Positions 1,809-3,999 of a stretch of DNA of 5,577 bases are shown one piece after another. Source of the DNA: Escherichia phage G4; sequence record NC_001420.2. The stretch is one strand, 5' to 3'. Under the pieces are notes generated by a model. The model did no database searches. It was given only the letters and a program-made list of their open reading frames with translations, and was not told where the DNA came from. Positions within the stretch are counted from its first letter, which is position 1. Every line of letters begins with the position of its first letter. Position numbers and translations under genes: made by a program.

Positions 1809-1974
1809 CGCCCTTGACGAGGAGAAATACTTAAATATGTTAGGTGCTCTCCTCAAGGACTGGTTCCGGTACGAAGAACATTTCGTGCATGGTAAACAAT
1901 CAATGCTTGACATACTGAAAGAACGTGGCCTATTATCCACATCGTCAACTGACACAAACCACAAAGGAAACTGA
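1720..1974 (+). CDS. C: Protein C (84 aa), involved in the switch to ssDNA synthesis and packaging
   Basis: ATG 1720-1722 overlaps the A stop (ATGA). Product [58 protein letters not shown]...ILKERGLL matches recalled phiX174 C ([42 protein letters not shown]...DWFRYESHFVHG...ILKERGLL). The ORF-track start at 1702 is a GTG extension and not the real start. Confidence 0.9.
1907..1936 (+). promoter_or_regulatory. Candidate sigma70 promoter for the late operon (PD): -35 TTGACA (1907-1912), 18-nt spacer, -10 TATTAT (1931-1936)
   Basis: Perfect consensus -35 and a 5/6 -10 inside the 3' end of gene C, about 40 nt upstream of the D start. This is the same relative position as the phiX174 PD promoter as I recall it. 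Confidence 0.5.
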
Positions 1975-2554: not shown

Positions 2555-2562
2555 TCTTTTAT

Positions 2563-2587
2563 GTGGGACCGCGGTCCCACTCTATTT
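2563..2587 (+). terminator. Perfect 18-nt palindrome (GTGGGACCGCGGTCCCAC, 2563-2580) followed by a T-rich stretch (CTCTATTT); candidate partial terminator after gene J
   Basis: The palindrome is self-complementary over all 18 nt and would fold on mRNA as a GC-rich hairpin of about 7 bp. It sits in the J-F intergenic space, where phiX174-type phages have a leaky terminator. The downstream U-tract is short and interrupted, so termination would be inefficient. Confidence 0.45.
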
Positions 2588-2599
2588 AAGGATACAAAA

Positions 2600-3883
2600 A
2601 TGTCTAACGTTCAAACATCTGCGGACCGTGTACCTCATGACTTATCTCACCTTGTCTTTGAGGCTGGTAAAATTGGCCGCCTCAAAACTATCTCTTGGAC
2701 GCCTGGTGGTGCTGGTGACTCTTTCGAGTGTGATATGGTTGGCGCTATTCGTCTGTCCCCTCTTCGTCGTGGCCTCGCTGTTGACTCACGCGTTGATATC
2801 TTTCCTTTCTATATCCCACACCGTCATATCTACGGTCAGCAGTGGATTAACTTTATGAAGGATGGCGTTAATGCCTCCCCTCTTCCTCCTGTTACATGCT
2901 CCTCTGGTTGGGACTCTGCTGCTTATCTCGGTACCATTCCGTCTTCTACCCTTAAAGTGCCTAAATTCTTACATCAGGGCTATCTGAATATTTATAATAA
3001 CTACTTCAAACCGCCTTGGTCTGATGACTTAACTTACGCTAACCCATCCAATATGCCTTCTGAGGATTATAAATGGGGCGTACGTGTCGCTAACCTTAAA
3101 TCTATCTGGACTGCGCCACTTCCACCGGATACTCGTACATCTGAAAACATGACTACTGGTACATCCACTATTGACATTATGGGCCTTCAAGCCGCATACG
3201 CTAAATTACATACGGAACAGGAACGTGATTACTTCATGACCCGTTACCGTGACATTATGAAAGAGTTCGGCGGTCATACATCCTATGATGGTGACAATCG
3301 TCCTCTTCTGCTCATGCGCTCTGAATTTTGGGCATCTGGCTATGACGTAGACGGTACTGACCAATCTTCTCTCGGTCAATTCTCTGGTCGCGTTCAGCAG
3401 ACCTTCAATCACAAAGTCCCACGCTTCTATGTTCCTGAGCATCGCGTAATTATGACTCTGGCGGTTACTCGCTTTCCGCCTACTCATGAAATGGAAATGC
3501 ACTATCTTGTAGGTAAAGAAAACTTAACTTATACCGATATTGCTTGTGACCCTGCACTGATGGCTAACCTGCCACCTCGTGAAGTATCCTTAAAAGAATT
3601 CTTCCACTCCTCACCCGATTCTGCTAAATTCAAAATCGCTGAGGGCCAATGGTATCGTACACAGCCTGACCGTGTCGCTTTCCCATATAATGCTCTGGAT
3701 GGATTCCCGTTCTACTCTGCTCTCCCGTCCACGGAACTAAAAGACCGTGTACTGGTTAACACTAATAACTACGATGAAATCTTCCAGTCTATGCAGCTTG
3801 CACACTGGAATATGCAAACTAAATTTAACATTAACGTTTATCGTCACATGCCTACGACACGTGACTCAATCATGACCTCGTAA
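2600..3883 (+). CDS. F: Major capsid protein F (427 aa)
   Basis: Product MSNVQTSADRVPHDLSHLVFEAGKIGRLKTIS...SPLRRGLA.DS.VDIF.FY.PHRH.YG.QWI.FMKDGVNA.PLP...IDIMGLQAAYA.LHT.QERDYFM.RY...LPTTRDSIMTS is highly similar along its length to recalled phiX174 F. ATG 2600 is preceded by SD AAGGA (2588-2592) at 7-nt spacing. The upstream in-frame ATG at 2561 lies inside a palindromic hairpin, has no SD, and its 13-aa extension has no homology. Confidence 0.95.
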   Translation: MSNVQTSADRVPHDLSHLVFEAGKIGRLKTISWTPGGAGDSFECDMVGAIRLSPLRRGLAVDSRVDIFPFYIPHRHIYGQQWINFMKDGVNASPLPPVTCSSGWDSAAYLGTIPSSTLKVPKFLHQGYLNIYNNYFKPPWSDDLTYANPSNMPSEDYKWGVRVANLKSIWTAPLPPDTRTSENMTTGTSTIDIMGLQAAYAKLHTEQERDYFMTRYRDIMKEFGGHTSYDGDNRPLLLMRSEFWASGYDVDGTDQSSLGQFSGRVQQTFNHKVPRFYVPEHRVIMTLAVTRFPPTHEMEMHYLVGKENLTYTDIACDPALMANLPPREVSLKEFFHSSPDSAKFKIAEGQWYRTQPDRVAFPYNALDGFPFYSALPSTELKDRVLVNTNNYDEIFQSMQLAHWNMQTKFNINVYRHMPTTRDSIMTS

Positions 3884-3892
3884 CGCAACAAA

Positions 3893-3999
3893 GGCCGCCC
3901 CTCTACTGGTCAGATACCTGCCCAATGTGGGGCGGACCGTGCCTACGGAGATACTCGAGTCTCCGATACATGGACGGCGAAAGCCGCCGTCCCTACTGC
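3893..3999 (+). other. Cluster of three GC-rich stem-loops in the F-G intergenic region; candidate complementary (-) strand origin / primase recognition structure
   Basis: Stem-loop 1: CCGCCCC (3895-3901) pairs with GGGGCGG (3929-3935), 7 bp with a 27-nt loop. Stem-loop 2: CGGAGA (3946-3951) pairs with TCTCCG (3960-3965), 8-nt loop. Stem-loop 3: GGACGGCG (3972-3979) pairs with CGCCGTCC (3985-3992), 5-nt loop. A repeated motif GCCGCC..(C)CTACTG follows stems 1 and 3 (3894-3908 and 3983-3998). The G4 complementary-strand origin recognised by DnaG primase is known to lie in the F-G intergenic region and to consist of stem-loops. Confidence 0.6.

Follow-up and report, generated by a model that had tools for sequence, protein, structure and literature searches.

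The hairpin between genes J and F of Escherichia phage G4 is very probably a lineage-specific allele of T_J, the leaky terminator and mRNA stabiliser of the Bullavirinae

In phiX174, the position between genes J and F holds the stem-loop GGGGC-UUCG-GCCCC, named T_J, which is one of four Rho-independent and deliberately inefficient terminators, together with T_F, T_G and T_H. As judged by RNA-seq, T_J cuts transcription by about 20-40%, and qPCR experiments indicated a read-through of 68% at 37 °C and 34% at 42 °C. In a mechanistic model, its efficiency was 0.34 when fitted to the qPCR data and near zero when fitted to the RNA-seq data. For T_J, Rho-independent transcript 3' ends about 7-9 nt past the stem are reported in the literature. 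Transcripts ending at T_J are the most stable transcripts of phiX174, and the shorter transcripts decay faster when the T_J structure is disrupted. An earlier paper on the J-F region, by Hayashi, Hayashi and Muller in 1983, is the work cited for this faster decay, and its title covers both phiX174 and G4. Only 14.6% of substitutions in the phiX174 terminators were detrimental, indicating that the element is not essential; substitutions directly 3' of T_J recur in phiX174 chemostat lines. No open transcript data for G4 were found in the literature.

A second described counterpart is present in ID11, whose published feature file lists 'J.term' at 2565-2578 and the F ribosome-binding site F.rbind given in Table 1 (PeerJ 2016;4:e2227). 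ID11 carries the same 18-mer as G4 at the same 5577-nt coordinates, with J.term lying inside 2563-2580, and differs from G4 there only in the 8-nt flank upstream of the stem. This pre-hairpin segment varies in close relatives (TCTCTTAT, TTACTTAT, which is the ID11 form, and ACTCTTAT, versus TCTTTTAT in G4). The element as such is therefore already known, as T_J in phiX174, as 'J.term' in ID11, and through the 1983 paper on this region of phiX174 and G4. What a comparison adds is that the hairpin is kept across three genera while its sequence has turned over completely, that two alleles exist within one species, and that published laboratory evolution data reveal selection on stem strength; it opens no new question.

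The window analysed here is the whole genome of Escherichia phage G4 (NC_001420.2; 5577 nt), which showed 99.6% full-length identity to AF454431 and is collinear with hundreds of G4, ID11 and NC13 records. Its J-F spacer is 45 nt long (2555-2599), starting after the J stop codon TAA (2552-2554), and the deposited G4 annotation enters no feature in it. The original prediction had described a perfect 18-nt palindrome at 2563-2580 of this spacer, and its coordinates, sequence and self-complementarity were all correct. The segment, GTGGGACCGCGGTCCCAC, consists of two 9-nt arms with 100% complementarity and no spacer between them, and contains a SacII site (CCGCGG). It was the only perfect palindrome with arms of at least 7 nt in the G4 genome. 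An arm of at least 9 nt appeared anywhere in 1.4% of 2000 dinucleotide-preserving shuffles, and the G4 case sits in a 45-nt non-coding spacer. The main origin of transcripts reaching the hairpin is the P_D promoter. We dismissed a promoter-like match on the minus strand (2606-2579, 9/12), as such matches were at chance level genome-wide (10 found versus 8.0 expected).

Table 1. Coordinates of the features around the J-F hairpin of G4
Feature	Position	Strand	Remarks
P_D promoter, TTGACA / 18 nt / TATTAT	1907-1936	+	Best sigma-70 match genome-wide, 11/12
ID11 annotation at the G4 P_D coordinates	-35, 1907-1912; -10, 1931-1936		D.pro
Gene J, 25 codons	2477-2554	+	GenBank annotation and sequence; TAA 8 nt ahead of the hairpin
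Pre-hairpin spacer TCTTTTAT	2555-2562	+	Holds A and T of the non-conserved ATG 2561
Hairpin 5' arm GTGGGAC	2563-2569	+	Pairing backed by covariation
Loop CGCG	2570-2573	+	UUCG or UACG in relatives, UGCG in NC19
Hairpin 3' arm GTCCCAC	2574-2580	+	Carries ID11 adaptive mutations 2574, 2575, 2577 and 2578
Interrupted U-rich tail TCTATTT	2581-2587	+	Terminator-like scan match; predicted zone for terminated 3' ends, by analogy
Gene F Shine-Dalgarno AAGGA	2588-2592	+	AAGGA or GAGGA in all spacers; ID11 F.rbind 2589-2592
Gene F, major capsid protein	2600-3883	+	Start ATG 2600

As RNA, 2563-2580 folded into a 7-bp stem with five G-C pairs and a 4-nt CGCG loop closed by C-G; the stem is not formed by the full 9 + 9 arms, because a real hairpin requires a loop. 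The folding energy was -13.1 kcal/mol for a 30-nt segment and -13.6 kcal/mol for the 45-nt spacer (z = -2.8). Since the hairpin ranked only eighth in stability among the local folds of the G4 genome, folding energy alone does not mark it out, and the evidence that the element is real is its conservation. An extended pairing of UCUUU (2555-2559) with AAGGA (2588-2592), which would mask the F Shine-Dalgarno sequence, was rejected, as it gained only 0.5 kcal/mol and was absent in ID11.

A scan for terminator-like patterns gave two matches on the plus strand, and the J-F hairpin with its tail TCTATTTAAG was listed first. The stem-loop is GC-rich and lies on the + strand downstream of P_D. The T-tract had been called weak in the original prediction, and this description holds: the tail UCUAUUU has five U in seven positions, is interrupted, and was accepted by a permissive scan. 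We also applied an approximate d'Aubenton-Carafa-type formula, whose scores can be used for relative comparison only; G4 scored -14.7, phiX174 T_J -10 to -22, and a canonical terminator +36. The low score, close to that of T_J, fits leakiness of the G4 hairpin. An Rfam scan of the whole G4 genome at E <= 10 gave no match at or near 2555-2599, and the G4 loop is not of the C(UNCG)G tetraloop type, as it is CGCG within a C-G closing pair.

Other hairpins were seen elsewhere in the G4 genome. The strongest local fold (GGACGGCG-AAAGC-CGCCGTCC, 3972-3992, -16.0 kcal/mol) lies in the F-G spacer; it includes GCGAAAGC, a known element that forms the 'mini-hairpin' in hairpin I of the complementary-strand (primase) origin of G4. 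Within the F coding region, a hairpin at 2657-2686 with 8-bp perfect arms (TTTGAGGC...GCCTCAAA, -13.7 kcal/mol) is stabler than the J-F hairpin. A terminator-like hairpin at 34-53 (GCCTCC-CATCAAAC-GGAGGC, then TTTTC) lies directly after the A promoter and just ahead of position 59, where the annotation starts gene A; the Shine-Dalgarno sequence of this gene forms the 3' arm of the hairpin (ID11 A.rbind 48-52). The hairpin resembles T_H of phiX174, an element that overlaps both pA and the ribosome-binding site of gene A. The program-made ORF list starts gene A at ATG 32, upstream of the annotated 59. The Shine-Dalgarno sequence and start codon of gene J are flanked by an 11-nt inverted repeat (TTGATTTTATC / GAAAAAATCAA, 2441-2451 and 2479-2489, 91% complementary), which could mask this ribosome-binding site. 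The left arm of the repeat belongs to a 32-nt E-J spacer that is missing from WA2-, ID8- and ID52-type genomes; there, J overlaps E and has its start at 2440 or 2434.

For the comparison with relatives, J-F spacers were gathered through anchors outside the hairpin, namely the F protein, the conserved J C-terminus, and the F Shine-Dalgarno sequence with the start codon, and named phage records were added. A first J-anchored pattern was too unspecific (119 matches, mostly chance), and a tighter pattern gave 5 metagenome and 17 viral loci. The resulting set comprised 29 distinct spacers from G4-like phages, alpha3-like phages, phiX174 and metagenomic contigs. All 29 contained a GC-rich hairpin of 4-7 bp, which started 4-8 nt past the J stop codon and ended 3-7 nt short of the F Shine-Dalgarno sequence; the order of J stop, stem and F Shine-Dalgarno was the same in every spacer, phiX174 included.

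Compensatory changes were observed directly in the hairpin kept at this position. The stems differed in sequence yet paired (GGGGC/GCCCC, GGGCC/GGCCC, GGGCCC/GGGCCC, GAGCCC/GGGCTC, GGGGGC/GCCCCC and the G4-type GTGGGAC/GTCCCAC), and one stem pair occurred as G-C, C-G and A-U among the relatives. Paired cells made up 95.7% of a MAFFT alignment and 96.5% of a covariance-model alignment, versus 18-76% when the partners were slid. The covariation scores were 0.20 and 0.29 versus 0.055 and 0.085 in shuffles, and none of the 500 shuffles reached the observed values.

The loop was UUCG in 21 spacers, UACG in three, UGCG in one (NC19) and CGCG in four, the last group being G4, NC13, ID11/WA2/ID8 and G4_WWN. 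UNCG loops are an RNA-specific stabilising motif, and their presence in 25 of the 29 spacers points to a role at the RNA level. Perfect two-fold symmetry was limited to four spacer variants of the G4 lineage and was absent from every UUCG and UACG allele; the G4 lineage has a perfect palindrome because the CGCG loop is itself self-complementary. Conservation in relatives, which the original prediction had offered as a check on the palindrome, was thus found for the hairpin and not for its perfect symmetry, which is lost in NC19, in evolved ID11 clones and in the UUCG and UACG alleles. Judging from these sequences, the conserved feature is the stem-loop, and exact palindromy is incidental.

Within the species Gequatrovirus G4, the hairpin exists as two discrete alleles, a G4-type and an ID52-type one, and none of the spacers examined had a form between the two. 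The ID52-type allele (GGGGGC-UACG-GCCCCC), present in ID52, ID12, WA6, NC10 and NC6, belongs to the same species-level group as G4, and has the same position and the same downstream flank ATTTAAGGATACAAAA; in contrast to G4, it has a 6-bp stem and a UACG loop. The F protein of ID52 is 98% identical to that of G4 despite the different hairpin allele. The natural isolate NC19 carries C2570T, which gives the UGCG loop, and C2576T, which turns a G-C pair into G.U; the palindrome is broken by these changes, and the RNA stem is kept. Changes forming G.U versus A.C were considered as a test of the selected strand and set aside, because they were too few and are confounded by the common C-to-T mutation bias.

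A donor of the G4-type stem was also sought. Among viral sequences, 4 stretches contained the 18-mer, as did 24 bacterial contigs, all with flanks unlike those of G4; the bacterial occurrences, against about 9 expected by chance, were judged to be roughly chance numbers. Import of the 18-mer from elsewhere therefore had no support. The exact 18-mer occurred three times, far above chance, in one unrelated 44.6-kb IMG/VR phage contig (L164 1742-1759; L165 1467-1484 and 1641-1658), and one of these copies, 13 nt past an ORF stop, precedes TTTTTTG. Terminator-like hairpins formed by this 18-mer were likewise seen in other genomes, Xenorhabdus among them (also L171, L172, L174 and L186), and none of these places has flanks in common with G4. 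Separately, the F-G junction of alpha3-like phages contains a near-copy of the J-F cassette, consisting of a stop codon, a GGGCC-TTCG-GGCCC hairpin, TTTAAGGA and the gene G ATG (L025 4282-4321, L140 2855-2894, L082 4356-4394, L144 4359-4397, L074 4360-4398 and L141 4668-4708; L006-L012 at about 2791-2817). The J-F and F-G stem variants (GGGGC or GGGCC) match within several of these genomes; concerted evolution or recombination may be the reason. G4 contains no second copy of the cassette.

The spacer also bears on the start of gene F. The ATG at 2561-2563 shares the reading frame of F, 13 codons ahead of 2600, and the palindrome starts with its G; from this overlap the original prediction had argued that it is not the F start. 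The overlap is real and the conclusion is right, and stronger evidence came from the relatives. Among the 22 spacers checked, an open in-frame upstream ATG was present only in the G4-type spacers and two alpha3-like ones; the other 17 either lack an upstream ATG, have one in another frame, or have one that a stop codon closes. No purine-rich Shine-Dalgarno sequence precedes 2561, whereas the AAGGA lying 7 nt ahead of ATG 2600 is conserved; every deposited record places the beginning of F at 2600. The true F start is ATG 2600.

Selection on the hairpin has been recorded in ID11; these experimental evolution data belong to ID11 and not to the G4 sequence itself. Nine first-step ID11 mutants were taken through 100 passages, and the "J terminator" was among the places where mutations concentrated (PeerJ 2016;4:e2227). 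The mutations in the 18-mer were 2563 G>C, 2574 G>A, 2575 T>C, 2577 C>T and 2578 C>T, of which 2577 C>T arose in six wells and was adaptive by all three of the authors' criteria (PeerJ 2016;4:e2227). Counting from the published table, we found 10 of 281 events in the 18-mer versus 0.9 expected (about 11-fold, P = 4e-8) and 5 of 112 distinct mutations versus 0.36 expected (P = 3.5e-5); the table contains none in the remaining 27 nt of the J-F spacer. The stem survived all five changes in weakened form, at -8.1 to -10.8 kcal/mol instead of -13.1 kcal/mol. In evolved ID11 clones, a G.U-forming change breaks the palindrome and keeps the RNA pairing, and C2577T was seen directly in GenBank clones from two differently named lineages. 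These mutations were selected for weakening and hence do not discriminate which strand is selected. Selection acts on the stem strength of the J-F hairpin. The change 2577cT co-occurred above chance with the P_D down-mutation 1910aG (PeerJ 2016;4:e2227); a weaker hairpin would pass more polymerase to F, G and H once the output of P_D falls, or, alternatively, would shorten the life of the D/E message.

We conclude that the G4 J-F hairpin is very probably the G4-lineage allele of T_J, the J-F intercistronic leaky terminator and mRNA stabiliser of the Bullavirinae. Its interrupted U-tract and negative terminator score could also indicate an element that only stabilises or processes mRNA, with little or no termination, either blocking 3' exonucleases on ends made otherwise or capping the 5' side of the F message. 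The near-zero termination at T_J in the phiX174 model fitted to RNA-seq agrees with this, as do the high stability of T_J-ended transcripts and their hastened decay upon disruption of T_J. We regard it as unlikely, since transcripts drop by 20-40% across T_J in phiX174 (qPCR, RNA-seq) and published mapping classes T_J as Rho-independent termination; moreover, termination and stabilisation are normally two functions of one hairpin. The distinction is a matter of degree and does not define another element. A role in translation, in which the hairpin would leave the F ribosome-binding site free of structure, serve as an insulator or standby site, or block ATG 2561, is improbable. The hairpin lies at a short, conserved distance of 3-7 nt from the Shine-Dalgarno sequence, the whole stop-hairpin-SD-ATG unit is repeated before gene G in alpha3-like phages, and the G of ATG 2561 is inside the stem; however, a compact genome alone accounts for short distances, most relatives have no upstream ATG yet always have the hairpin, and the only fold masking the Shine-Dalgarno sequence (UCUUU/AAGGA) is marginal at 0.5 kcal/mol and not kept in ID11.

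The palindrome could in principle act as DNA, by forming a cruciform within the replicative form, by serving as a site of protein binding or restriction (SacII, CCGCGG), or as a hairpin in the packaged single strand. The plus strand is indeed the packaged ssDNA, and as DNA the hairpin had an energy of -6.7 kcal/mol (z = -2.6) on either strand. Nevertheless, palindromy is not kept, as 25 of the 29 spacers have loops that are not self-complementary; the G.U-forming changes in NC19 and the evolved ID11 clones break the DNA palindrome and preserve RNA pairing; and UNCG loops stabilise RNA specifically. In addition, the ACTTGA motif of the phiX174 cleavage site is absent from G4, and the known DNA hairpins of G4, those of the complementary-strand origin, are in the F-G spacer. 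A DNA-level function is thus very improbable. Even less credit can be given to a chance palindrome without function. Its local folding energy is only eighth in the genome and the same 18-mer occurs in 24 bacterial contigs with about 9 expected, but a palindrome this long arose in few shuffles (1.4%), a hairpin lies at the same position with covariation in three genera, and ID11 adaptive mutations are enriched about 11-fold in the 18-mer. The comparative and experimental evolution data effectively refute this explanation.

With the hairpin taken as a T_J allele, its partial termination and mRNA stabilisation in G4 are inferred from homology to T_J of phiX174. RNAs initiated at P_B and P_D would pass through D, E and J, and the nascent RNA of 2563-2580 would fold into the GC-rich 7-bp stem with its CGCG loop, with the imperfect UCUAUUU behind it. 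A minority of polymerases would then stop a few nucleotides past 2580, and the majority would read into F, G and H. The 3'-terminal hairpin would shield the D-E-J mRNAs from 3'-to-5' exonucleases, and the net outcome would be to set the abundance of the scaffold, lysis and J messages relative to the capsid and spike messages. As the J stop codon lies 4-8 nt ahead of the stem (8 nt in G4), a ribosome ending J should briefly melt the 5' arm, which may add to the leakiness and would couple J translation to read-through. Given the near-zero fit to RNA-seq at T_J, the share of termination may be small relative to stabilisation. Lower F, G and H messages and stabilised upstream transcripts for the G4-type allele are indicated indirectly by the recurrent stem-weakening mutations of ID11 and their co-occurrence with the P_D down-mutation.

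The original prediction of a leaky terminator or mRNA-stabilising hairpin is supported, by analogy, through its match with phiX174 T_J and with ID11 'J.term' on identical sequence. The J:F ratio, which it had proposed as the tuned quantity, should be replaced: the balance is rather that between the upstream B-to-J transcripts, D and E included, and downstream F/G/H. The element would thus set the F, G and H message relative to the scaffold, lysis and J message in a genome without dedicated regulators, a role that is textbook knowledge for phiX174.

A more speculative idea, to which we give little weight, concerns the origin of the G4 allele, which may be more than a drifted T_J. It may have arisen by one-step intrastrand template switching, which would account for the mirrored insertions in both arms and the self-complementary loop; the longer palindrome might add a DNA-level property, as a hairpin or cruciform in the ssDNA or replicative form, and the strength of the RNA stem would serve as an evolvable rheostat. 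If this were true, laboratory evolution would repeatedly turn the rheostat down, rebalancing F/G/H after P_D down-mutations.

With canonical bacterial intrinsic terminators, the G4 element shares a GC-rich hairpin on the transcribed strand and the U residues after it. It differs in that UCUAUUU is interrupted and abuts a ribosome-binding site, and a low efficiency is expected; the same 18-mer precedes clean T-runs in unrelated genomes, for example in L165 and L171. The element also resembles phiX174 T_J. Both hairpins are preceded by the J stop codon and followed by the F Shine-Dalgarno sequence, and both have a short GC-rich stem, a 4-nt loop, an interrupted U-tract and similar predicted strength. 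Their stems are unlike, with the 7-bp GUGGGAC/GUCCCAC and CGCG in G4 and the 5-6-bp (A)GGGGC/GCCCC(U) and UUCG in phiX174, and phiX174 has the ACTTGA A/A* cleavage motif after T_J, whereas G4 has TCTATTTAAGGATAC there (2581-2599). By analogy, the behaviour expected of both is the same, namely partial termination together with protection of the upstream transcripts.
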